From Escherichia coli (GTDB lineage: Bacteria; Pseudomonadota; Gammaproteobacteria; Enterobacterales; Enterobacteriaceae): DNA of 64,000 nucleotides. A program made the position numbers and the translations under genes. The stretch lies in NCBI RefSeq assembly GCF_022846255.1, contig NZ_AP025682.1; one strand, 5' to 3'. Under the pieces are notes generated by a model. It was not told the DNA's origin. It saw only the letters and a program-made list of their open reading frames with translations, and searched no databases. This document shows, one piece after another, positions 1 through 62,062 of this stretch (within the stretch, counting starts at the first letter, position 1; every line of letters starts with the position of its first letter).

Positions 1-749
1 GGTTTTATTCCCAGTGCGCAAAATATGATTTTATTGGCTCACGGCGTGATGGTGGATTTGCCGAATATATTGTCGTTAAGCGAAACAATGTCTTTGCACT
101 ACCTGCGGATATGCCTATTGAGGATGGCGCTTTTATTGAACCGATTACTGTTGGCCTGCATGCGTTCCATTTAGCGCAAGGATGTGAGAATAAAAACGTT
201 ATTATTATTGGTGCCGGAACCATTGGCCTGCTGGCAATTCAGTGCGCTGTCGCGTTGGGAGCAAAGAGTGTGACGGCTATCGACATTAGCTCAGAAAAAC
301 TGGCACTGGCAAAATCTTTCGGTGCGATGCAAACATTTAACAGCCGTGAAATGAGCGCGCCGCAAATACAGGGCGTTTTACGCGATCTGCGCTTTAATCA
401 GCTTATCCTCGAGACGGCTGGCGTCCCGCAAACCGTCGAACTGGCGGTAGAGATTGCCGGTCCTCATGCCCAACTGGCGCTGGTAGGCACGTTGCATCAG
501 GATCTGCATTTAACATCGGCAACGTTTGGCAAAATATTGCGTAAAGAGCTGACGGTTATCGGCAGTTGGATGAACTACTCCAGCCCTTGGCCGGGGCAGG
601 AGTGGGAAACGGCGAGCCGGTTGCTGACAGAACGTAAGTTAAGCCTGGAGCCATTAATCGCTCACCGTGGAAGCTTTGAAAGCTTCGCCCAGGCGGTGCG
701 TGACATCGCTCGTAATGCCATGCCGGGCAAAGTGTTGCTCATTCCCTGA
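1..749 (+). CDS. gatD: galactitol-1-phosphate 5-dehydrogenase (Zn-dependent alcohol dehydrogenase family), 5'-truncated by the window start; frame begins at nt 3
   Basis: The open frame runs from nt 3 with no stop until 749. The translation (FYSQCAKYDFIGSRRDGGFAEYIVVK...GKVLLIP) matches the GatD C-terminal half, including the GAGTIG Rossmann motif. Confidence 0.9.
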   Translation, partial: FYSQCAKYDFIGSRRDGGFAEYIVVKRNNVFALPADMPIEDGAFIEPITVGLHAFHLAQGCENKNVIIIGAGTIGLLAIQCAVALGAKSVTAIDISSEKLALAKSFGAMQTFNSREMSAPQIQGVLRDLRFNQLILETAGVPQTVELAVEIAGPHAQLALVGTLHQDLHLTSATFGKILRKELTVIGSWMNYSSPWPGQEWETASRLLTERKLSLEPLIAHRGSFESFAQAVRDIARNAMPGKVLLIP

Positions 750-754
750 AACCG

Positions 755-785
755 CGGGCCAGCGTGATGCTGGCCCGGTATTGTG
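755..785 (+). terminator. putative intrinsic terminator after gatD (9-bp GC-rich stem cgggccagc/gctggcccg, loop gtgat, then T-containing tail)
   Basis: Perfect inverted repeat immediately 3' of the gatD stop codon, read directly from the sequence. Confidence 0.4.
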
Positions 786-848
786 CAAAACAGATCATTC
801 ACCAATGGTCCCCCTTCGTTTACACTAGCCACAATTGAATATGGGTAA

Positions 849-1628
849 ATGACGATGAATTCATTCGAGCGAAGGAATAAGATCATCCAATTAGTGAATG
901 AACAGGGAACCGTGCTTGTTCAGGATCTGGCGGGAGTATTTGCTGCCTCGGAAGCGACAATCCGTGCCGATTTGCGCTTTCTCGAACAAAAAGGCGTGGT
1001 TACGCGCTTTCATGGCGGTGCGGCGAAAATAATGTCCGGTAATAGTGAAACCGAGACCCAGGAAGTCGGGTTTAAAGAGCGATTTCAGCTCGCCAGCGCG
1101 CCAAAAAACAGAATAGCGCAGGCGGCAGTCAAAATGATCCACGAAGGGATGACCGTTATTCTCGACAGCGGAAGTACGACAATGCTTATCGCCGAAGGAT
1201 TAATGACCGCCAAAAATATCACGGTGATTACCAACAGTCTCCCGGCAGCATTTGCCCTTTCCGAAAATAAAGACATTACTCTGGTCGTCTGCGGTGGGAC
1301 CGTCCGCCATAAAACACGCTCGATGCATGGCTCCATTGCTGAGCGTTCATTGCAGGATATTAATGCCGATTTAATGTTTGTCGGTGCTGATGGTATTGAT
1401 GCGGTTAATGGTATTACGACCTTTAATGAAGGCTATTCGATTAGCGGGGCGATGGTCACAGCCGCAAATAAAGTGATTGCCGTTCTCGATTCATCGAAAT
1501 TTAATCGTCGCGGTTTTAATCAGGTACTGCCAATCGAAAAAATTGACATTATTATTACCGATGATGCTGTGTCTGAGGTGGATAAACTGGCATTGCAGAA
1601 GACACGGGTAAAGTTAATTACGGTGTAG
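849..1628 (+). CDS. gatR: DeoR-family transcriptional repressor of the galactitol operon; appears intact (259 aa)
   Basis: Uninterrupted ORF with an N-terminal DeoR HTH (QDLAGVFAASEATIRADLRFLEQKG) and a C-terminal sugar-phosphate-binding domain, directly downstream of gatD. The start could be 849 or 855. Confidence 0.85.
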   Translation: MTMNSFERRNKIIQLVNEQGTVLVQDLAGVFAASEATIRADLRFLEQKGVVTRFHGGAAKIMSGNSETETQEVGFKERFQLASAPKNRIAQAAVKMIHEGMTVILDSGSTTMLIAEGLMTAKNITVITNSLPAAFALSENKDITLVVCGGTVRHKTRSMHGSIAERSLQDINADLMFVGADGIDAVNGITTFNEGYSISGAMVTAANKVIAVLDSSKFNRRGFNQVLPIEKIDIIITDDAVSEVDKLALQKTRVKLITV

Positions 1629-1640
1629 TATTGTTCTGTA

Positions 1641-1672
1641 TGCCGGATAAGGTGTTTACACCGCATCCGGCA
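1641..1672. repeat. REP-like palindromic element (tgccggataagg...ccgcatccggca)
   Basis: GCCGGATAAGG / CCGCATCCGGC inverted repeat typical of enterobacterial REP sequences, between the convergent gatR and yegS. Confidence 0.5.
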
Positions 1673-1709
1673 TTACGGATTCTCCCTGGTTCAACAGAGA
1701 ATAGTTTGA

Positions 1710-2609
1710 TTAACGCAATAATGGACAATCTGGTGGTAATCGACAACGCAACGCCGCCGGAAGTATTTCAATATGGAAGTTTTGCCCACTCAACGGTTCG
1801 CCATCAAGATTAAAAGTGATTTCGTGTGGGGCTTGTATATCAAACCACGACGAAGCGCCTTCGATAATATTCGGGTTATCTTCGTCAGATTTTAATGTTG
1901 ATACGAGAGCCGGAAGAATTTCATCGCCGGTAAAAATGCGCAGTTGCAGCAAGCCATCGTTAATTAACGCGTTCGGGCACAATTGCTGACCGCCACCGGC
2001 CTGACGCCCGTTACCAATACCAATGACCAGGGCGTCACCTTGCCAGTGAAAGTTTTCACCGCGGATTTCACAACGGTCCGGTTGCAGAGTATCCATGCGC
2101 ATTAAGCCATGAATGATGTAAGAGACGCCACCCAGCGCGGCTTTTAATTTTTCCGGCGTTTCTGTGGTAATACGCGTCCCAAATCCGCCTGTCGCCATAT
2201 TAATAAAACAGGTTTGTTTGTTGACCTGCGCCATATCTATCGCAATGGCGTTACCGGCAATTGCCAGTTTCAGCGCCTTATCCAGTGCCTCAGGAATCCC
2301 TACACTGGTGGCAAAATCATTGGCGGTTCCTAATGGCAAAATTCCCAGCGCGGGTATGTCATCCCCCTCACACTGAATCAACGCCGTAGAAACTTCATTA
2401 ATGGTGCCATCGCCACCACCGGCAATCACCGTTGCGACGCCCAACTTCCGGGCCTCCTCTACATATCGTGCGGCATCGCCTTTCTCCCAGGTGACCCGCA
2501 CATGGATCGTCATTCCTTCCTCACGCAACAGCATAATTGCTTCGCGCAAGGGTAAATTGTCAGTACTTTTGCCATTAAGAATCAGTAAGCTGGCGGGAAA
2601 TTCTGCCAT
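1710..2609 (-). CDS. yegS: lipid kinase YegS (diacylglycerol-kinase-like catalytic domain)
   Basis: 299-aa ORF starting [15 protein letters not shown] with a GGDGT motif; matches my recollection of E. coli YegS. Confidence 0.92.
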
Positions 2610-3023
2610 GATCGTATGTGCCTTTATGATTGGTCTGTAGATAGTGTAGAGCAGAAAAGAAAAGGTAGAGTCAGAACAGGATGAAAGTCGGAGGATAAAA
2701 AGTCAGTTCAAGTATGGAAGATTCAGTGGTTACCACCAGGAGCTTGCAATGGGGACAGCGAATACTAACGGCAGCCACCGATAAATTTCAAAAAAGAGCA
2801 TATACCTAATATTCAACTAAACAGTGGCATCTTCAATATACTATTAAAAATATATTAACCCCCCCATGGGGTTACCCGGAAGGGCATCCGTGTATGTAAT
2901 TCCTACTTATGTAGGAAATGTTGTACAGAACATTTATTATAATCCTATTCAAATATAATAATCATGCCATTATTATATTTAAACACCAGAGCGTGTCGTT
3001 GGTATTTAATGGGGGAAGGTAAG

Positions 3024-3341
3024 ATGAAAAAGATAGCTGCTATATCATTAATTAGTGTTTTTCTTATGTCTGGTTGTGCTGTGCATAATGATGAGACAAG
3101 TATCGGTAAATTTGGCCTTGCATATAAAAGTAATATTCAGCGTAAACTCGATAACCAATACTACACCGAAGCCGAAGCTTCTTTAGCCAGGGGCAGAATT
3201 TCTGGTGCAGAAAATATAGTAAAAAATGATGCAGCTCATTTCTGTGTTACTCAGGGAAAAAAAATGCAGATAGTTGACCTGAAGACAGAAGGTGCAGGAT
3301 TACATGGCGTCGCTCGTCTGACATTCAAATGTGGAGAGTGA
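3024..3341 (+). CDS. yegR: small lipoprotein YegR
   Basis: Start ATG at 3024 preceded by a ggaagg RBS; signal peptide with lipobox (FLMSGC); 105 aa, consistent with YegR. The supplied ORF (2964) has a 20-aa N-terminal extension that I reject. Confidence 0.8.
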   Translation: MKKIAAISLISVFLMSGCAVHNDETSIGKFGLAYKSNIQRKLDNQYYTEAEASLARGRISGAENIVKNDAAHFCVTQGKKMQIVDLKTEGAGLHGVARLTFKCGE

Positions 3342-3498
3342 GAATATTTTTTGGTAAGCGTCAAACATGCGCGTTCTGGCTGTGCGTAACCGGAACCTGT
3401 GCGAGCACGATGCCAATAAGTGAAAGGCATCGTGCTATGAGGGGAGATTCTATCGATGTGGTCAATGGAAGACGGTTACCAGGATACGGCTTATGCAT

Positions 3499-3585
3499 AA
3501 AAAATAAGCCCGTGTAAGGGAGATTACACAGGCTAAGGAGGTGGTTCCTGGTACAGCTAGCATTTTATGGGTTATGTTTTTCAGC
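3499..3585 (-). ncRNA. cyaR: CyaR (RyeE) Hfq-dependent sRNA
   Basis: The reverse complement of 3499-3585 matches the 87-nt CyaR sequence as I recall it (GCTGAAAAACATAACCCATAAAATGCTAGCTGTACCAGGAACCACCTCCTTAGCC...CGGGCTTATTTTTT), including its intrinsic terminator, and lies immediately 3' of yegQ as expected. Confidence 0.85.
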
Positions 3586-3619
3586 GAAACGGATGATAAC
3601 CTTAATAAATGCAGCTGTA

Positions 3620-3635
3620 TGTGATCGGTTTCTAA
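3620..3635 (-). promoter_or_regulatory. putative class II CRP site of the cyaR promoter (TGTGA-N6-TCTAA on plus strand)
   Basis: A TGTGA half-site plus a degenerate partner, centred about 42 bp upstream of the CyaR 5' end; CyaR is known to be CRP-activated. Confidence 0.5.
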
Positions 3636-3669
3636 GAATTTTCCATCCGGGAAAAATAATCGAAATTAA

Positions 3670-5031
3670 TCACTTACCGTGGGGGTTACGCGTGGTTTCC
3701 CCGGAGAAATTACGCATCAGCAGCGCGTAATTTAGCTCAAGATCCTGCGGCACCGGGATCCACACAGTATAACCATCGCCCGGTGCGACCGGCATTGCTT
3801 CGCCTTTGGCGTTTTCCATATGCTCAAGGGTAAAGTTAATGTTCCCTTGCGGCGTCATCAGCTCAAGGCTGTCGCCAACGGAGAATTTATTTTTCACCGC
3901 TACCGCCGCGAGGTCGCCCTTGCGCTCACCGGTAAACTCACCAACAAACTGCTGGCGGTCAGAAACTGAATAACCGTATTCGTAGTTCTGATAATCGTCG
4001 TGAGTATGACGACGCAGGAAACCTTCGGTATAGCCACGATGCGCCAGACCTTCCAGAGTTTCCAGCAGGCTGGTATCGAACGGTTTGCCCGCAGCGGCAT
4101 CATCGATAGCTTTACGGTAAACCTGCGCGGTGCGTGCGCAATAGTAGAAAGATTTGGTACGACCTTCGATTTTCAGCGAATGCACGCCCATTTTGGTCAG
4201 GCGTTCTACATGGGCGATGGCGCGCAGATCTTTCGAGTTCATGATGTAAGTGCCGTGCTCATCTTCAAACGCGGTCATATACTCGCCCGGACGCTGGGCT
4301 TCTTCGATCATAAACACTTTGTCGGTTGGCGCGCCGATACCCAGCGTCGGCTCAACATTTTGCACCGGAATCGGCTCGTACTTGTGTACGATGTTGCCAA
4401 CGTCATCTTCTTTCCCTTCCTGGACGTTGTACTCCCAGCGGCAGGCGTTGGTGCAGGTACCCTGGTTCGGGTCGCGCTTGTTGATATAGCCAGAGAGCAG
4501 GCAGCGACCGGAGTAGGCCATGCACAGCGCGCCGTGAACGAAGATCTCGATCTCCATATCCGGCACCTGATTGCGGATCTCTTCAATCTCTTCCAGCGAC
4601 AGCTCGCGAGAGAGGATCACGCGGGTCAGTCCCATTTGCTGCCAGAATTTCACCGTCGCCCAGTTCACGGCGTTAGCCTGTACCGAGAGATGGATCGGCA
4701 TTTCAGGGAAGTGCTCGCGCACCAGCATAATCAGCCCCGGATCGGACATAATCAGCGCATCCGGCCCCATTTCCACCACCGGTTTCAGGTCACGGATAAA
4801 GGTTTTCAGCTTGGCGTTGTGCGGTGCAATGTTGACCACAACATAAAACTTTTTCCCCAGCGCGTGGGCTTCATTGATGCCGAGCTGAAGATTTTCGTGG
4901 TTGAATTCGTTGTTGCGCACACGCAGGGAGTAACGCGGCTGGCCCGCATAAACAGCATCTGCGCCATAAGCGAAAGCGTAACGCATATTTTTCAGCGTTC
5001 CCGCCGGGGAAAGGAGTTCCGGTTTAAACAT
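3670..5031 (-). CDS. yegQ: peptidase U32-family protein YegQ (TrhP, tRNA ho5U34 hydroxylation)
   Basis: 453-aa ORF with U32 family signatures (MFKPELLSPAG...collagenase-like); length and position as expected for yegQ. Confidence 0.92.
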   Translation of the reverse strand: MFKPELLSPAGTLKNMRYAFAYGADAVYAGQPRYSLRVRNNEFNHENLQLGINEAHALGKKFYVVVNIAPHNAKLKTFIRDLKPVVEMGPDALIMSDPGLIMLVREHFPEMPIHLSVQANAVNWATVKFWQQMGLTRVILSRELSLEEIEEIRNQVPDMEIEIFVHGALCMAYSGRCLLSGYINKRDPNQGTCTNACRWEYNVQEGKEDDVGNIVHKYEPIPVQNVEPTLGIGAPTDKVFMIEEAQRPGEYMTAFEDEHGTYIMNSKDLRAIAHVERLTKMGVHSLKIEGRTKSFYYCARTAQVYRKAIDDAAAGKPFDTSLLETLEGLAHRGYTEGFLRRHTHDDYQNYEYGYSVSDRQQFVGEFTGERKGDLAAVAVKNKFSVGDSLELMTPQGNINFTLEHMENAKGEAMPVAPGDGYTVWIPVPQDLELNYALLMRNFSGETTRNPHGK

Positions 5032-5133
5032 AATTCTCTCGTTCTGATGACAGGTCAGATCCGCTTCACCTGATGAAGCGGTTAGGGGAGTGCCCCCACT
5101 TTAAGGGCGGGCATTGTAGCGCAATCGGCGGGT

Positions 5134-5430
5134 TTAGCTCCAGTGTAAATGTCTGGAGGCGTCCTGGTTTTGGTTAAGGATACGAATGACGATAATTTCC
5201 TCTGGTGATTGCAGGAAATAAATTACGTGGCGTTCAAAAGGAAGAACAAAAATACCTTCGCCTAATTCAGGTCTGGGTGTACCTATATTATTGTTACTCA
5301 GAATCTGGAGAACGTCTGAAAGATGTTCCACATATCTGTCGGCTTGTGGTTCGCCGAAATGGTGATAGCTGTAATACCAGATGCCTTCTAAATCCTCATT
5401 GGCTTTTGGCATGAGTTTTATAGTACGCAC
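5134..5430 (-). CDS. RelE/ParE-superfamily type II toxin (ParE-like)
   Basis: About 92-98 aa; ParE-like segments (EDLEGIWYY..FGEPQADRYVEHL...HVIYFLQSPEEIIVIRIL); directly downstream of, and nearly abutting, an RHH antitoxin ORF. Start is either GTG at 5430 or ATG at 5412. Confidence 0.75.
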   Translation of the reverse strand: MRTIKLMPKANEDLEGIWYYSYHHFGEPQADRYVEHLSDVLQILSNNNIGTPRPELGEGIFVLPFERHVIYFLQSPEEIIVIRILNQNQDASRHLHWS

Positions 5431-5431
5431 A

Positions 5432-5683
5432 TTATTTCCTTATCCCTGCTTTCACCTTCCGTAAAAACGCGTCCTTTTCCCACGGCTGAGCTTCACCACT
5501 ACTCAACCCTTCAGCGAGCATGTCACGTAACGCTTGCAGGCGAGACTCTGCTTGCTTTTCTCGAAGTAAGCGCAGCGACTCACGGATCACTTCGCTTTGG
5601 GTGCGATAGTCGCCGGATTCAATTAAGGACTCGATAAATTCACGCAACTCATCGCCGAGATCAACCGTCATCGTTCTGGCCAT
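5432..5683 (-). CDS. ParD-like (RHH/COG3609) type II antitoxin
   Basis: 83-aa product from ATG at 5683 (MARTMTVDLGDELREFIESLIESGDYRTQSEVIRESLRLLREKQ...); ribbon-helix-helix ParD signature; stop 1 nt before the toxin start. The supplied ORF extends to 5728. Confidence 0.75.
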   Translation of the reverse strand: MARTMTVDLGDELREFIESLIESGDYRTQSEVIRESLRLLREKQAESRLQALRDMLAEGLSSGEAQPWEKDAFLRKVKAGIRK

Positions 5684-5890
5684 TTTACGCCCGCCTGTAA
5701 GTAAAAATCTTACATCAGTGTATTTCATAAACCGGATAGCGTCACGAAAGTATTAGAAGATATTTTGGCATATGAACATGTTCAGGAAGATAAGTATGGG
5801 ATGGTAAACAAAGAAAGCACAACGAGTGCTTGTCAGTGCCCACTATTTTAATGGCGGAGGTTAATCTTAATTATCAATAACTAAGAGTTG

Positions 5891-5929
5891 TTTTGATATA
5901 AAGCCGGACGCCAACAACCCACGCCCGGC
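5891..5929 (-). terminator. putative intrinsic terminator downstream of yegP
   Basis: On the minus strand a GC-rich hairpin (gccgggcg...cgtccggc) followed by TTTATATCAAAA lies immediately 3' of the yegP stop. Confidence 0.5.
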
Positions 5930-5936
5930 ATCGTAA

Positions 5937-6269
5937 TTACGTATTGTCTTTTACCGTCTGACTTGTGCCATTGGCTTTAACGGAGGCAATTCCGGTTTCA
6001 CGAGATTGCGCGGTGGCGTACATCTGGCTGGAGCCGATAATTTGATGATTGGCGGCTTTCAGATTGAAATAGAATTTGCCGTTGCTTGCCGTTTTTTTCT
6101 CATAGCGTTCTTCTTGCGGGCTGTTGCTACGTACCGACGCGATGCCCTTTTCCGCAGAGGCTTTTGAGGTATACAGCTCGCTGGTGAGGATAGTCTCACC
6201 ATTGCCCGCTTTTAGCACAAACCGGAACTGATTATCACTGCTCTTACTGAGTTCAAACCAACCAGCCAT
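5937..6269 (-). CDS. yegP: UPF0339/DUF1508 tandem-repeat small protein YegP
   Basis: 110 aa from ATG at 6269 with a strong RBS (aaggagtcATG); MAGWFELSKSSDNQFRFVLKAGNGE... followed by an internal repeat (KFYFNLKAANHQIIGSSQMY). Confidence 0.85.
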   Translation of the reverse strand: MAGWFELSKSSDNQFRFVLKAGNGETILTSELYTSKASAEKGIASVRSNSPQEERYEKKTASNGKFYFNLKAANHQIIGSSQMYATAQSRETGIASVKANGTSQTVKDNT

Positions 6270-6448
6270 AATGACTCCTTGATTGAAATTGCGTATCGAA
6301 AACAGCATCTAAAGGTACTGTTTGCCAATTAAAGTATGAGCGATTTTCTGGTGCCTGCCAGGGCGGAGAGATAATGTCAGTTTGCTGACCATGCGTGGGA
6401 TAATGTTGCCGGATCTGGTCTGAAGGCCATCTCCGGCAGGTAAAAATG

Positions 6449-7171
6449 TTAAACGATGCGGCAGGCATCGGCTTCCCAGCGGTAACCGACGCCGTAAACG
6501 GCGCGGATAAATGACTGTTCGGCGTCGAGAGATTCCAGCTTGCGGCGCAGGTTTTTAATGTGGCTGTCGATGGTACGGTCAGTTACCACGCGGTAGTCGT
6601 CATAAAGATGGTTCAGCAACTGCTCGCGGGAGAACACTTTTCCTGGTTCATGAGAGAGCGTTTTCAGCAGACGAAATTCTGCAGGCGTCAGGTCAAGCAT
6701 TTTACCGCGCCATGAAGCCTGAAAACGACCTTCGTCGATAATCAACGGGCTTTCAGCATCCTGTTGCTGCAACTCACGCTGCGGTTTGCAACGGCGCAAA
6801 ATGGTTTTGACGCGCGCTACCACTTCCCGTGGGCTGTACGGTTTGCAGATGTAGTCATCTGCGCCAATCTCCAGCCCGAGCAGGCGGTCGATCTCTTCGA
6901 TTTTTGCTGTCACCATCACGATCGGAATGTCAGAAAAACGACGAATCTCCCGACACAACGTCAGGCCATCGGTGCCAGGGAGCATCAGATCCAACAGGAT
7001 CAGATCCGGTGGTGTCTGGCGCACATATGGCAGTACCTGATCGCCGTGGCTGATAAGCGTCGGCGCATAGCTCGCAGCACGCAGATAATCAATGAGTAAC
7101 TGTCCCAGCTTCGGTTCATCTTCCACGATCAAAATACGCGGTGTGTTTTCGTCGATTGGTAACTCGGTCAT
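6449..7171 (-). CDS. baeR: OmpR-family response regulator BaeR
   Basis: 240 aa; receiver domain ([11 protein letters not shown]...[11 protein letters not shown]) plus winged-helix output domain; overlaps the baeS stop. Confidence 0.95.
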
Positions 7172-8571
7172 ACTTCTCTCTGTAAATCCCGTTCCAGCGG
7201 TAACTCTACTGTAATGCTTACCCCGCCAAAAGGCGAATGGGCAGCAATAATGCGACCATTATGTGCTTCAACAATGTTCAGGCAAATCGCCAGCCCCAGC
7301 CCGGAACCGCCGCTGGCTCGGTTGCGGGAGCCTTCGGTGCGATAAAAACGTTCAAACAATTTTTGTAGCTGATCGTCACTGACGCCCGGCGCGCTGTCGG
7401 CAAAGGTCAGGCGCACCGTTTTGTCGTGCTGCTCGGCAGAGATTATCAGGCTACCGCCGCTGTCAGTGTAGCGCAGGCTGTTTTCCAGTAAGTTATTGAA
7501 TAACTGCATTAAACGGTCGCGATCGCCAAATACGGTAATACTGTCTGGCAGGGAAAATTGCAGTTTCAGGCCACGGCTGGCGAATCGTTCGCGAAATGCG
7601 CCGCCCGCCACTTCCAGCAGTGGGATCAAATCTACCGGTGCTTTTTGATAGGCGAGAGCGCCTTCATCAGACATCGACAACTGATGGAGATCGTCAACCA
7701 GTTTGGTCAGTGTACCGACCTCCGCCTGTAAAGACGCCACCGTCTCCGGCGTGAATTTACGCACGCCATCCTGAATGGCTTCCAGTTCACCGCGCAGCAC
7801 CGCTAATGGCGTACGCAGTTCGTGAGAAATATCGGCCATAAAATCGCGCCGCATTTGCTGGTTTTTCTCCAGCGTGCTGGCAAGCTGGTTGAAGTCTTGC
7901 GCCAGTTTGCCCAATTCATCTTCACTGGTGGGCGTCACGCGAGTAGTGAAATCGCCCGCTGCCAGTTTGTGTGTACCGTCCACCAGTCGTTTGACCGGAG
8001 CCAGCAAACCGCGCGCCAGTGGGAATGTCGCCAGCGCCGCTAACAAGGTAGATAAAGCGACAATCAGCCAACTGGTTTGCCTCTGTTGTCTGTCAAAATT
8101 GATATCGGTATTGCGGGTCAGTCGTTCAACAGGGGAGGCGATCACCGCACCCACTTCCGCCCCATTGACCATAATGGGCCGCCGTGTGCCGTCTGGTGGA
8201 ATCGGTGCTCGCGGGCCAACCAGCACTTTGTTGTTTTGATCAACCACCCAGAATTGCGTGCGCCAACCGTGTGGCGGCATACCGGGGCCGGGCTTATCTT
8301 CGTTGTTATCATGCTCCAGCGAACGTAGGATCTGAAATACAAAGCGATCGTTATTACGCAGGAAGCGCCAGTTCCCGTGCTGGGCGTACTGCTCACCAAG
8401 CGCATCGCCGAGCATTTGCAGCCGTTGTTCATTACCATGCTTGATGTAATCAATAAAGCCACGCTCAAAACTGATACGCACCGCCCAGTGCATACTGATC
8501 AGCAAGACAATGCAGGTGGCGAAAATCGCCAGAAACAGTTTGCCGGTAATACCGGGTCGCCAGAACTTCAT
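7168..8571 (-). CDS. baeS: envelope-stress sensor histidine kinase BaeS
   Basis: 467 aa; two transmembrane segments, HAMP, H-box ([11 protein letters not shown]) and HATPase domain. Confidence 0.95.
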
Positions 8572-9983
8572 TGCGCGCTCCTTTTTCGCCGCGAAATAGC
8601 GACATTTTGATGCGTATCGTTCGGCACTCTGGCAAAGATGAACGCCGGAAGGGCGATGATAAACGCCATGCTAAGCCAGGTGTACATAAAGACGGTTTGT
8701 GTGGTGCCGCTGTCGACGCTGACATGCTGTGAACCAAAAAGTCCCAGCAACAGCCCGGCGATAGTGACGCCGATACTCATCGACAATTGCATAATCATCG
8801 ACAGCAGGCTGTTTCCGCTGCTCGCCAGATTGTCCGGGAGATCTTTCAGCGTCAGGGTGTTCATGGAGGAGAAACGCGTTGAGTTGACCATTCCTTGTAA
8901 AAACAGGACGAACGGTAAAACGTAGTACCAGCCCAGCAGCGCGGTGGTCATAAACAACATGGTGACCAGCGACAGACCCAGCGTGGTCGCTACCAGTACC
9001 CGACGATAACCAAAGCGATTCACCACCTGTACCACAATTCGCTTCATTCCCATGCTGCCAAGCACCATCGGGATCATCATCAGTCCGGCATGAAAAGGCG
9101 AGAAACCGAGGCCAATTTGCAGGAAAACCGGCGTCATAAAGGGCAACATGCCGCTACCGATACGTCCGGCAAAGCTCCCCGCCAGGCCCAGTGAAAAGGT
9201 ACGAGTGCGGAACAGTTTCAGACTGAAAAGAGCGCGGTTGTTATTTCTGGCGTGCAGCAGATAAAGCACCAGTGCCACCACACCAACTGTGACCAGGCCA
9301 GCAATCGCCAGCGGCGATAAACCTGTACCTTTACTGCCGTCCAGCGCCAGGGTTAATACCGCCATGCCAACCGCCAGCAATAAAAAGCCGGAGAGATCAA
9401 AGCACCGCGTCTGCATGGTGTAGTTCGGCATTAACATCAGTGTGGCGATCGCGCCAATAATCCCCACCGGAATGTTGATCAAAAAGATCCAGTGCCACGA
9501 TGCGTACTCCACCAGCAGACCGCCGAGCGCCGGGCCAAGCAGCGGCCCGACCTGACCGGGCAGCGTGACAAAGGTCATCGCCGCCATATATTGCTCGCGC
9601 GGTACGATTTTCATCACCGTCAACCTACCGACCGGCACCATCATCGCGCCGCCAACGCCCTGTAACGCGCGTGCCAGCAACAGTTCGTTCAGCGTGCCGG
9701 AAAGCGCGCAAAACAGTGAACCGAGAGTAAACAGCACGATGGCGGTAAAGAAAATATTGCGCACGCCGACTTTGTCCGCCAGCCAGCCGCTGGCGGGCAG
9801 CATCACCGCCACGGTCAGTACATAAGAGACAATGACCATGTGCATATGCAACGGACTTTCCCCGAGGCTTTGCGCCATTGAGGGAAGCGCGGTGTTAACG
9901 ATGGTGGTGTCCAGCGACTGCATAAAGAAGCCGAAAGCCACAATCCACAATTGCCAGCGGGTGCTGTCGGGAAGATCTGTCAT
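8568..9983 (-). CDS. mdtD: MFS transporter MdtD
   Basis: 471 aa, 14-TM major facilitator profile; overlaps the baeS start by 4 nt. Confidence 0.93.
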
Positions 9984-57204: not shown

Positions 57205-57243
57205 CAGTGCTCTGGTAGCTGTAAAGCCAGGGGCGGTAGCGTG
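57205..57243 (+). promoter_or_regulatory. JUMPstart element with ops site (GGCGGTAGCGTG at 57232-57243) in the O-antigen operon leader
   Basis: Exact ops consensus preceded by GGTAGC, about 75 bp upstream of rmlB; the same 30-nt core (agccaggggcggtagcgtg) as the cps leader copy. Confidence 0.75.
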
Positions 57244-59360: not shown

Positions 59361-60239
59361 ATGAAAACGCGTAAAGGTATTATTTTAGCGGGTGGTTCTG
59401 GTACTCGTCTTTATCCTGTGACTATGGTCGTCAGTAAACAGCTATTACCTATATATGATAAACCGATGATCTATTATCCGCTTTCTACACTGATGTTAGC
59501 GGGTATTCGCGATATTCTGATTATTAGTACGCCACAGGATACTCCTCGTTTTCAACAACTGCTGGGTGACGGTAGCCAGTGGGGCCTGAATCTTCAGTAC
59601 AAAGTGCAACCGAGTCCGGATGGTCTTGCGCAGGCATTTATTATCGGTGAAGAGTTTATTGGTGGTGATGATTGTGCTTTGGTACTTGGTGATAATATCT
59701 TCTACGGTCACGACCTGCCTAAGTTAATGGATGCCGCTGTTAACAAAGAAAGTGGTGCAACGGTATTTGCCTATCACGTTAATGATCCTGAACGCTATGG
59801 TGTCGTTGAGTTTGATAAAAACGGTACGGCGATCAGCCTGGAAGAAAAACCGCTACAACCAAAAAGTAATTATGCGGTAACCGGGCTTTATTTTTATGAT
59901 AACGACGTTGTCGAAATGGCGAAAAATCTTAAGCCTTCTGCCCGCGGTGAACTGGAAATTACCGATATTAACCGTATCTATATGGAACAAGGGCGTTTAT
60001 CTGTTGCCATGATGGGGCGTGGTTATGCGTGGTTAGACACGGGGACACATCAGAGCCTGATTGAGGCAAGCAACTTTATTGCAACAATTGAAGAGCGTCA
60101 GGGGCTGAAAGTTTCCTGCCCGGAAGAAATTGCTTACCGTAAAGGGTTTGTTGATGCTGAGCAGGTGAAAGTATTAGCTGAACCTCTGAAAAAAAATGCT
60201 TATGGTCAGTATCTGCTGAAAATGATTAAAGGTTATTAA
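59361..60239 (+). CDS. rmlA: glucose-1-phosphate thymidylyltransferase
   Basis: 292 aa, [21 protein letters not shown]... Confidence 0.95.
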
Positions 60240-60243
60240 TAAA

Positions 60244-60792
60244 ATGAACGTAATTAAAACAGAAATTCCTGATGTACTGATTTTTGAACCGAAAGTTTTT
60301 GGTGATGAGCGTGGTTTCTTTTTTGAGAGCTTTAACCAGAAGGTTTTTGAGGAAGCTGTAGGCCGCAAAGTTGAATTTGTTCAGGATAACCATTCGAAGT
60401 CTAGTAAAGGTGTTTTACGCGGGCTGCATTATCAGTTGGAACCTTATGCACAAGGAAAATTGGTGCGTTGCGTTGTCGGTGAAGTTTTTGACGTAGCTGT
60501 TGATATTCGTAAATCGTCATCGACTTTTGGCAAATGGGTTGGGGTGAATTTATCTGCTGAGAATAAGCGGCAATTGTGGATTCCTGAGGGATTTGCACAT
60601 GGTTTTTTAGTGCTGAGTGAGACGGCGGAGTTTTTGTATAAGACGACAAATTATTATCATCCTCAGAGTGATAGAGGAATAAAATGGGATGATCCAAGTA
60701 TCAATATTTCATGGCCAGTCGATTCACAAGTGCTGCTATCAGCTAAAGATAATAAGCATCCTCCATTAACAAAGATTGAAATGTATAGTTAA
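60244..60792 (+). CDS. rmlC: dTDP-4-dehydrorhamnose 3,5-epimerase
   Basis: 182 aa cupin-fold RmlC (…GLHYQLEPYAQGKLVRCVVGEVFDVAVDIRK…). Confidence 0.93.
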   Translation: MNVIKTEIPDVLIFEPKVFGDERGFFFESFNQKVFEEAVGRKVEFVQDNHSKSSKGVLRGLHYQLEPYAQGKLVRCVVGEVFDVAVDIRKSSSTFGKWVGVNLSAENKRQLWIPEGFAHGFLVLSETAEFLYKTTNYYHPQSDRGIKWDDPSINISWPVDSQVLLSAKDNKHPPLTKIEMYS

Positions 60793-60823
60793 GATCACGA
60801 TAAATCTTGGAAGGGTTGCAAAA

Positions 60824-62062
60824 TTGAATAAAATAGTGAGCAAAAGTGAAATAAGGAACGTAATCCACAATGCTGGCTATATGATGATTACTCAGATAGC
60901 TTTATATGTTGCACCATTATTTATACTGAGTTATCTGTTAAAAACACTGGGGGTTGCACAGTTTGGTAATTATGCCTTAATACTATCAATCGTTGCATAT
61001 TTACAGATTATAACGGATTATGGTTTTTCTTTTAGTGCAAGTCGTGCGATCTCACAGAATAGAGAGGACAAAGAATATATATCAAAAATTTATCTGTCAA
61101 CTATGACTATCAAGTTGGCGATATGCGCTTTCTTATTCTTATTGCTCATGCTATTTTTAAATCTTTTGCCTGTGCAAGCTGAATTAAAACAAGGAATATT
61201 ATATGGATATCTTCTTGTAATAGGAAATACTTTCCAACCACAATGGTTTTTCCAAGGTATCGAAAAATTAAAAATCATAGCCCTTTCTAATGTTATATCA
61301 AGATGCGCCGCGTGTTTACTTGTATTTATCTATGTGAGGAATAGCGAGGATTTACAAAAAGCACTTTTAGTACAGTCACTTCCATTAGTAATTTCTGCGA
61401 TTGGATTAAATATATTTATATTGAAATATATCAATATTATTTTTCCGGAAAAAAAATTATTTAAGGTAATTTTAAAAGAAGGTAAGGATTTTTTTCTTGC
61501 ATCACTTTATTCTGTTATTCTCAATAATAGTGGCATTTTTCTATTAGGGATTTTTACTAATCCTGTTATTGTTGGTGTATATGCCGCCGCTGAAAAGATA
61601 GTCAAGGCCGTATTGTCGCTATTTACACCACTGACGCAAGCTATATATCCTTATAATTGTCGTAAGTTTTCACTATCCGTATTTGACGGCATTGAGGCAG
61701 CAAAAAAAACTGGTATACCAATTATAATTTTAGCATTTATAGCTGCTGTTATCGTTGCAATTACCTTACCTGTTGCAATCGACTATCTTAATTTTCCAAA
61801 AGAAACAATTTTTGTAGGTCAAATATTAAGTGCATGGATCTTTTTTGGTGTTCTTAATAATGTATTCGGCATTCAGATATTGAGTGCATCAGGAAGAAGT
61901 AAAATATATAGTAGGATGGTATTCGTATCAGCGCTTATAACATTACTTTTGATTACTCTATTATTGCAGTTTTGTAACGCCACTGGAGTGGCATGTGCAA
62001 TATTATTGGGTGAAATGTTCTTATCAATATTGTTACTTAAGCGATATAAAAAAATAATTTAA
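60824..62062 (+). CDS. wzx: O-antigen flippase Wzx (start codon uncertain: TTG at 60824 or ATG at 60881)
   Basis: Very AT-rich, polytopic membrane protein of about 395-410 aa directly after rmlC. The supplied ORF begins at 60776, overlapping rmlC. A ggaagg RBS precedes TTG 60824. Confidence 0.75.
   Translation: MNKIVSKSEIRNVIHNAGYMMITQIALYVAPLFILSYLLKTLGVAQFGNYALILSIVAYLQIITDYGFSFSASRAISQNREDKEYISKIYLSTMTIKLAICAFLFLLLMLFLNLLPVQAELKQGILYGYLLVIGNTFQPQWFFQGIEKLKIIALSNVISRCAACLLVFIYVRNSEDLQKALLVQSLPLVISAIGLNIFILKYINIIFPEKKLFKVILKEGKDFFLASLYSVILNNSGIFLLGIFTNPVIVGVYAAAEKIVKAVLSLFTPLTQAIYPYNCRKFSLSVFDGIEAAKKTGIPIIILAFIAAVIVAITLPVAIDYLNFPKETIFVGQILSAWIFFGVLNNVFGIQILSASGRSKIYSRMVFVSALITLLLITLLLQFCNATGVACAILLGEMFLSILLLKRYKKII

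Follow-up and report, generated by a model that had tools for sequence, protein, structure and literature searches.

Translation of wzx at the rmlC–wzx junction of the Escherichia coli O1 O-antigen gene cluster very probably begins at a non-ATG codon upstream of the first in-frame ATG, namely at TTG 60824 or at GTG 60836. Orthology favours GTG 60836, which aligns with the start of related genes, whereas ribosome-binding-site geometry favours TTG 60824, the one codon of the pair with a usable Shine–Dalgarno (SD) sequence, so that the two approaches point to different codons. The choice between them is inferred from the comparisons below: we favour TTG 60824 as the principal start in O1, at about even odds, over GTG 60836, which we judge somewhat less likely.

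Gene identity and candidate start codons

All coordinates refer to the window, the whole stretch of 64,000 nucleotides that was analysed. Its 1.9 kb around the rmlC–wzx junction are 100 per cent identical to many complete E. coli genomes, in which RefSeq labels the genes rfbA, rfbC, 'wzx: O1 family O-antigen flippase', and wecB. The wzx gene occurs at 99 per cent identity or more in 91 complete E. coli genomes, and 'O1 family O-antigen flippase' is its annotation in 27 of the 27 genomes listed in the table of matches and in the 30 best full-length matches; beyond these, the nearest relative in E. coli has a DNA identity of about 67 per cent. In the RefSeq annotation of the identical locus, wzx lies between galF and gnd in an O-antigen cluster that also carries wzy and glycosyltransferase genes, and the annotated order in the type strain ATCC 11775 is galF-rfbBDAC-wzx-wecB-GT2-wzy-GT2-DUF1972-gndA. 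Sequence identity thus places the region at the rmlC–wzx junction of the known O1 cluster.

The wzx open reading frame (ORF) matches Pfam Polysacc_synt (PF01943) with 141.7 bits (cut-off 28.2; E = 4e-41) over profile positions 3–269 of 274, and its neighbours match dTDP_sugar_isom and Epimerase_2. An AlphaFold model of the protein is all-helical (pLDDT 91.2, pTM 0.87), and its top structural match in the PDB is the flippase WzxE (9g9p, TM 0.78), followed by MATE and MurJ structures; a PDB search with the sequence returned only noise and no sequence-level match. By Pfam match, predicted fold and cluster context, O1 Wzx qualifies as a PST-type O-antigen flippase of the MOP superfamily, with a predicted role in translocating the Und-PP-linked O unit. 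An NCBIfam scan of the ORF found no family, and hence the RefSeq name does not derive from a hidden Markov model in that library; another type of rule may be its source.

The features relevant to the start of wzx are as follows.

60244..60792, plus strand: rmlC (rfbC), dTDP-4-dehydrorhamnose 3,5-epimerase (ORF list; Pfam dTDP_sugar_isom, E = 1.6e-79; RefSeq rfbC has the same coordinates)
60776..60778, plus strand: TTG, first start-type codon of the wzx frame, giving a 428 aa form; overlaps the last 17 nt of rmlC
60790–60792, plus strand: TAA, stop codon of rmlC
60809..60814, plus strand: GGAAGG, SD-like, with spacers of 9 nt to TTG 60824 and 21 nt to GTG 60836
60824..62062, plus strand: wzx, O1 O-antigen flippase, 12-helix MOP/PST transporter (from the favoured TTG; RefSeq from 60836)
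60824..60826, plus strand: TTG, candidate start of a 412 aa Wzx (MNKIVSKSEIRN...), favoured by ribosome-binding-site geometry
60836..60838, plus strand: GTG, candidate start of a 408 aa Wzx (MSKSEIRN...), used by RefSeq/PGAP and orthologous to the starts of the family
60869..60871, plus strand: AAT, codon of Asn16 (412 aa numbering), a residue shared by all 26 aligned homologues; precedes the first ATG
60881..60886, plus strand: ATG ATG, first in-frame ATGs, giving 393 and 392 aa forms; rejected as starts

The first-pass annotation had placed the beginning of the open wzx frame inside the 3' end of rmlC, and this is correct, as are its other sequence statements: an in-frame TAA occupies 60767–60769, and the frame is open from 60770, ahead of the rmlC stop. 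The in-frame start-type codons are TTG 60776, TTG 60824, GTG 60836, ATG 60881, and ATG 60884. The annotation had offered a choice between overlap with rmlC and the TTG at 60824. Its second option stands in so far as TTG 60824 does have an SD sequence; the overlap codon TTG 60776 has neither an SD sequence nor conserved residues behind it, and GTG 60836, which encodes the valine of 'NKIVSK', had been omitted from the choice. The stretch between the rmlC stop and GTG 60836 is 43 nt long, and its last 16 nt are strongly A-rich. From TTG 60824 to ATG 60881, the segment translates as (L/M)NKIVSKSEIRNVIHNAGY (19 codons).

Several further signals were recorded in the same region. In the galF–rmlB intergenic region upstream of rmlB, a JUMPstart RNA element (Rfam RF01707, 60 bits) lies at 57205–57243 on the plus strand; an antitermination signal of this type is expected in O-antigen operons. 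The longest galF ORF starts at GTG 56041 and the RefSeq start is ATG 56053; rmlB is annotated from GTG 57319. Within wzx, an SD-like TAAGGA (60852–60857) precedes by 12 nt an out-of-frame ATG at 60870, which opens a mini-ORF of four codons (ATG CTG GCT ATA TGA) whose stop overlaps the ATG ATG of wzx; this arrangement (60852–60884, plus strand) is probably due to chance.

The first ATG and the overlap with rmlC

The homologues compared are Wzx proteins of Enterobacterales and Aeromonas that are paired with a UDP-GlcNAc 2-epimerase (proteins P0004–P0033, loci L002–L018), and they are 37–65 per cent identical to O1 Wzx. Their evidence bears directly on ATG 60881, which the first-pass annotation had expected to strip genuine N-terminal Wzx sequence. 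It would indeed do so: Asn16 and the start of the Pfam domain lie upstream of it, and the homologues keep the motif xxKEIRNVIHNAGYLL. In a protein alignment of 26 homologues (29–64 per cent identity), Asn16 is invariant, and the Polysacc_synt match starts, at profile position 3, with residue 31 of the long ORF (60866), five codons before the ATG. In the AlphaFold model, helix 1 spans residues 7–42 and contains Met20, the residue encoded by ATG 60881, so that initiation there would remove 13 of the 36 residues of the helix. The positions of O1 Met20 and Met21 are occupied by leucine in most homologues. Of 10 homologue loci inspected, at least 8 lack an ATG within 20 codons of their start codon. 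The ATG is also preceded by only a weak SD sequence (−1.5 kcal/mol) and sits in the most stable local mRNA fold among the candidates (−10.3 kcal/mol).

Translation from the first ATG (60881 or 60884), as annotated in some GenBank entries, would have in its favour that ATG is the most efficient start codon, that proteins of 393 and 392 aa are deposited (on 72 and 7 contigs, respectively), and that homologues P0007, P0009, and P0010 are likewise called from internal ATGs. We nevertheless consider it highly improbable: it is already contradicted by the conservation seen in the alignments, and ATG 60881 was rejected as a start. The first-pass annotation had named homologues that consistently begin at this ATG as the observation that would overturn its view; the homologues begin instead at the position of GTG 60836, plus or minus one codon. 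None begins at the position of TTG 60824 either.

Initiation at TTG 60776, inside rmlC, would produce the 428 aa protein with a 17-nt overlap and translational coupling to rmlC. Overlapping starts are common in operons, no start-type codon of the open frame lies further upstream, and the 428 aa form is present on 21 database contigs. The codon has no SD pairing (−0.9 and +2.0 kcal/mol in two computations), however, and the 16 residues that it would add (MKCIVKITINLGRVAK) are found in no homologue; a stop two codons ahead of the GTG closes the frame in the four closest relatives. With no SD sequence at TTG 60776 and an extension that is absent from all homologues, rmlC and wzx do not qualify as an overlapping, translationally coupled pair. 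TTG 60776 was rejected on these grounds, and we regard initiation there as the least credible of the readings considered.

The sequence that follows rmlC was also compared with that of other serogroups. In the 38 non-O1 E. coli matches listed, which reach query position 236 or lower, homology ends by the rmlC stop, and GGAAGG is therefore not a conserved post-rmlC sequence of these serogroups. This comparison indicates that the rmlC–wzx joint is O1-specific, and the open frame at TTG 60776 is consequently best read as accidental.

E. coli strain 0-4 (NZ_CP076262.1) carries the O1 wzx. Relative to window positions 60095–60699 (the 3' end of rmlA and rmlC), this genome has 59 differences up to 60609 and one at 60699, and there are none from there through 61002. 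The distribution of differences points to a recombination breakpoint within the 3' part of rmlC, with the last ~90–180 nt of the gene travelling with the O1-specific block.

TTG 60824 and GTG 60836

The first-pass annotation had described TTG 60824 as preceded by a ggaagg ribosome-binding site, and the pairing is well placed: GGAAGG forms a duplex with the 3' end of 16S rRNA at −4.6 to −6.0 kcal/mol, with a 9-nt spacer and an aligned spacing of 5, which is optimal. The aligned distance from the same element to GTG 60836 is 17 nt. GGAAGG is the sole SD-like element in the wzx leader, and among the in-frame candidates TTG 60824 has SD-like pairing 5–10 nt upstream, whereas GTG 60836, ATG 60881, and TTG 60776 do not. 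The pairing before TTG 60824 (−6.0 kcal/mol) ranks among the strongest 5 per cent of the 6148 NTG triplets in the window, which makes a chance origin unlikely, though not overwhelmingly so. For GTG 60836, no SD-like pairing is found within 18 nt (+0.4 kcal/mol, the 77th percentile of the NTG triplets). Among the three E. coli start codons, TTG is used least often.

Relative initiation rates were estimated with our own rough re-implementation of an RBS-Calculator-style thermodynamic model, which is uncalibrated and gave ~10,760 for TTG 60824, 217 for ATG 60881, ~100 for TTG 60776, and 52 for GTG 60836. On this scale, initiation at TTG 60824 is about 200-fold higher than at GTG 60836, whose rate is the lowest among all candidates and all homologue starts; homologue wzx starts range from 200 to 9,400 and neighbouring genes from 700 to 9,500. 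The cluster genes that were checked (rmlB, rmlD, rmlA, rmlC, and wecB) have SD-like elements at aligned spacings of 3–9. So do all 13 homologue wzx starts, at aligned spacings of 3–8, whereas the O1 GTG has none; in 12 of these 13 the element pairs at −3.3 kcal/mol or better, the exception being L014 (−0.4 kcal/mol).

Orthology gives the opposite answer. In a comparison with the unambiguous starts of close homologues, GTG 60836 aligns and neither TTG 60824 nor ATG 60881 does. The wzx starts of the 13 homologue loci all lie within one codon of the GTG 60836 position and never at that of TTG 60824. Within one codon of the GTG position, the start is ATG in L009, L013, and L014, GTG in L010, L012, and L017, and TTG in L011, L016, and L018. 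The TTG starts of L011, L016, and L018, which are Salmonella and E. coli relatives, are obligatory and set a family precedent for TTG initiation.

The four closest relatives (L002, L004, L006, and L008), which are 61–65 per cent identical to O1 Wzx, are the most informative. They align as TTG GAA TGA AAA GTG, and O1 reads TTG AAT AAA ATA GTG; the TTG and GTG columns are both invariant in the DNA alignment of the five sequences. Two codons before the GTG, where O1 reads AAA, the relatives have an in-frame stop (TGA, TGA, TAA, or TAG), and GTG is therefore their only possible start. Their weak SD sequence is the GGA of TTGGAAT; O1, which has lost a G, reads TTGAAT and lacks it. Conversely, in a MAFFT alignment the relatives show a 5-column gap at the position of the O1 GGAAGG.

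The most economical account of these differences takes GTG 60836 as the ancestral start of this Wzx subfamily. In O1, the in-frame stop between TTG and GTG and the weak GGA that serves the GTG in relatives both seem to have disappeared, and as a result initiation has probably shifted four codons upstream. The GGAAGG, which relatives lack at the rmlC–wzx joint, would provide a ribosome-binding site that, measured from the coding sequence, lies 12 nt farther upstream than in the Wzx homologues. By pairing with it, the 30S subunit would bring TTG 60824 into the P site at optimal aligned spacing, and the product would be the 412 aa protein. A start migration of this kind in the O1 lineage, from GTG to TTG and driven by GGAAGG, possibly with both codons in use, is a tentative reading to which we give slightly less than an even chance. 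If true, it would be a small, datable example of start-codon turnover beside an O1-specific gene joint. Dual use of TTG 60824 and GTG 60836, which would yield two N-terminal proteoforms of Wzx, is possible.

Alternatively, translation may begin at GTG 60836, as RefSeq has it, to give 408 aa; the TTG 12 nt upstream would then be an accidentally open leader codon, and an unstructured A-rich leader would take the place of the SD sequence. Beyond the orthology of the GTG and its use by RefSeq/PGAP and in UniProt D7PDU0 (408 aa), this reading is consistent with the predicted unpaired probability, which peaks around GTG 60836 (0.07, against 0.008 at TTG 60824). E. coli ribosomes are documented to select correct starts without SD pairing and to initiate more strongly behind A-rich upstream sequence (Saito et al. 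2020; PMC7043885). Against it stand the missing SD pairing, the lowest modelled rate, and the loss in O1 of the relatives' GGA; moreover, ribosomes initiating at the SD-served TTG 60824 would read through the GTG. We regard a start at the GTG as possible, though less likely than not, and TTG 60824 remains the start that we favour.

The four additional residues of the 412 aa form (MNKI) align with nothing in the homologues and come out as disordered in the structure prediction. In the AlphaFold model, residues 1–5 have a pLDDT below 50 because no homologue covers them, and the structure model therefore cannot discriminate TTG from GTG. Given that only four disordered residues change, a functional difference between the 412 and 408 aa proteins is, on the model, unlikely. 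Population data do not separate the two codons either, since no leader polymorphism occurs in 60700–61002 in the two most divergent O1 genomes examined (strain 0-4 and APEC O1). In the literature searched, the start of O1 wzx is neither mapped nor discussed, and no initiation-site data appear for any O1 strain. To our knowledge, published initiation maps mostly describe K-12 derivatives, which are without the O1 wzx.

Some of the homologue loci are of interest in their own right. In every fetched locus (L002, L004–L014, and L016–L018), a UDP-GlcNAc 2-epimerase gene (Epimerase_2) directly follows the wzx relative, and the upstream neighbour varies (rmlC, rmlA, the galF leader, a gene of the EpsG family [PF14897], or a reverse-transcriptase fragment); judged by gene order, the flippase–epimerase pair behaves as a conserved module. 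In the metagenomic locus L008 (1321–1803), an ORF with a reverse-transcriptase domain (RVT_1) lies ~500 nt upstream of the wzx homologue; a group II intron or a remnant of a retron within this polysaccharide locus is a possible explanation. Locus L016 (E. coli E600003, NZ_CM128598.1) carries at 2480–3727 a second E. coli flippase in the same rmlBDAC-flippase-wecB layout, with a TTG start at the counterpart of 60836. Over its first 30 residues it matches P0023 (46 per cent identical to O1 Wzx) at all but 2 positions, and it may be the 'O1 non-A' wzx of PMC5293828.

Database N-termini and comparison with known systems

The suspicion, raised in the first-pass annotation, that this is a likely spot for database misannotation is borne out by the deposited sequences. 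The O1 wzx protein is present at no fewer than five lengths; four were surveyed by exact-sequence look-up (428, 412, 408, and 393 aa), and the 392 aa form is a member of the same cluster.

428 aa: 21 contigs
412 aa: at least 1000 contigs; UniProt A0A0A1A9N4
408 aa: at least 1000 contigs; RefSeq; UniProt D7PDU0
393 aa: 72 contigs
392 aa: 7 contigs

The RefSeq protein, WP_157658977.1, begins at the GTG (locus position 6637, window position 60836), and the 412 aa form, from Logan and ENA predictions, is the representative of the protein cluster.

Similar start calls were noted in homologues. The Rahnella aquatilis gene (L017:1501–1533) is called from an upstream ATG without a usable SD sequence, giving 430 aa, and a GTG with an SD sequence lies at the orthologous position (1531). 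The gene in L018 (1501–1530) is called from an ATG that overlaps rmlC, giving 427 aa, and a TTG with an SD sequence of −11 kcal/mol lies at the orthologous position (1528). P0007, P0009, and P0010, called from internal ATGs, are missing part of helix 1. From these sequences, start misannotation appears to run through the Wzx subfamily, and the error recurs because the true starts are mostly GTG or TTG.

The O1 wzx is an established gene and ambiguity of this kind is familiar in annotation; the case is an ordinary annotation problem rather than new biology. Its main relevance lies in annotation: one invariant gene carries at least five N-termini, which is useful to know for curation and for construct design. 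Multiple N-termini inflate protein-cluster counts and can mislead the design of Wzx expression and structural constructs. To judge from the model, the ATG-started versions, which are without a third of transmembrane helix 1, would probably be non-functional if cloned as annotated.

The closest known system is the O1 (O1A) wzx itself (WP_157658977.1, D7PDU0). The DNA across rmlC–wzx is 100 per cent identical in many complete genomes and 99.9 per cent identical to ATCC 11775, with the same gene order (galF-rmlBDAC-wzx-wecB-GT-wzy-GT-GT-gnd), and the records differ only in the annotated start: RefSeq uses GTG 60836, A0A0A1A9N4 and the Logan and ENA predictions use TTG 60824, and some GenBank entries use an ATG or the upstream TTG. 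The Wzx homologues share with O1 the N-terminus xxKEIRNVIHNAGYLL, the downstream epimerase gene, and mostly non-ATG (GTG or TTG) starts, each of which, in the homologues, is preceded by an SD-like element. WzxE, the ECA lipid III flippase of E. coli (PDB 9g9p and related structures), likewise has the MOP-superfamily fold (Foldseek E = 7.6e-9 over 415 aligned columns with the O1 Wzx model), and its helix 1 also begins a few residues after the N-terminus, but it is only 16 per cent identical, has a different substrate, and belongs to a different gene cluster. In its start region, O1 wzx resembles the non-AUG (GUG or UUG) genes of E. coli with alternative in-frame starts, having two close non-ATG codons and a downstream ATG decoy; retapamulin Ribo-seq resolves alternative-start sites of this kind (bioRxiv 10.1101/520783; PMC7043885).
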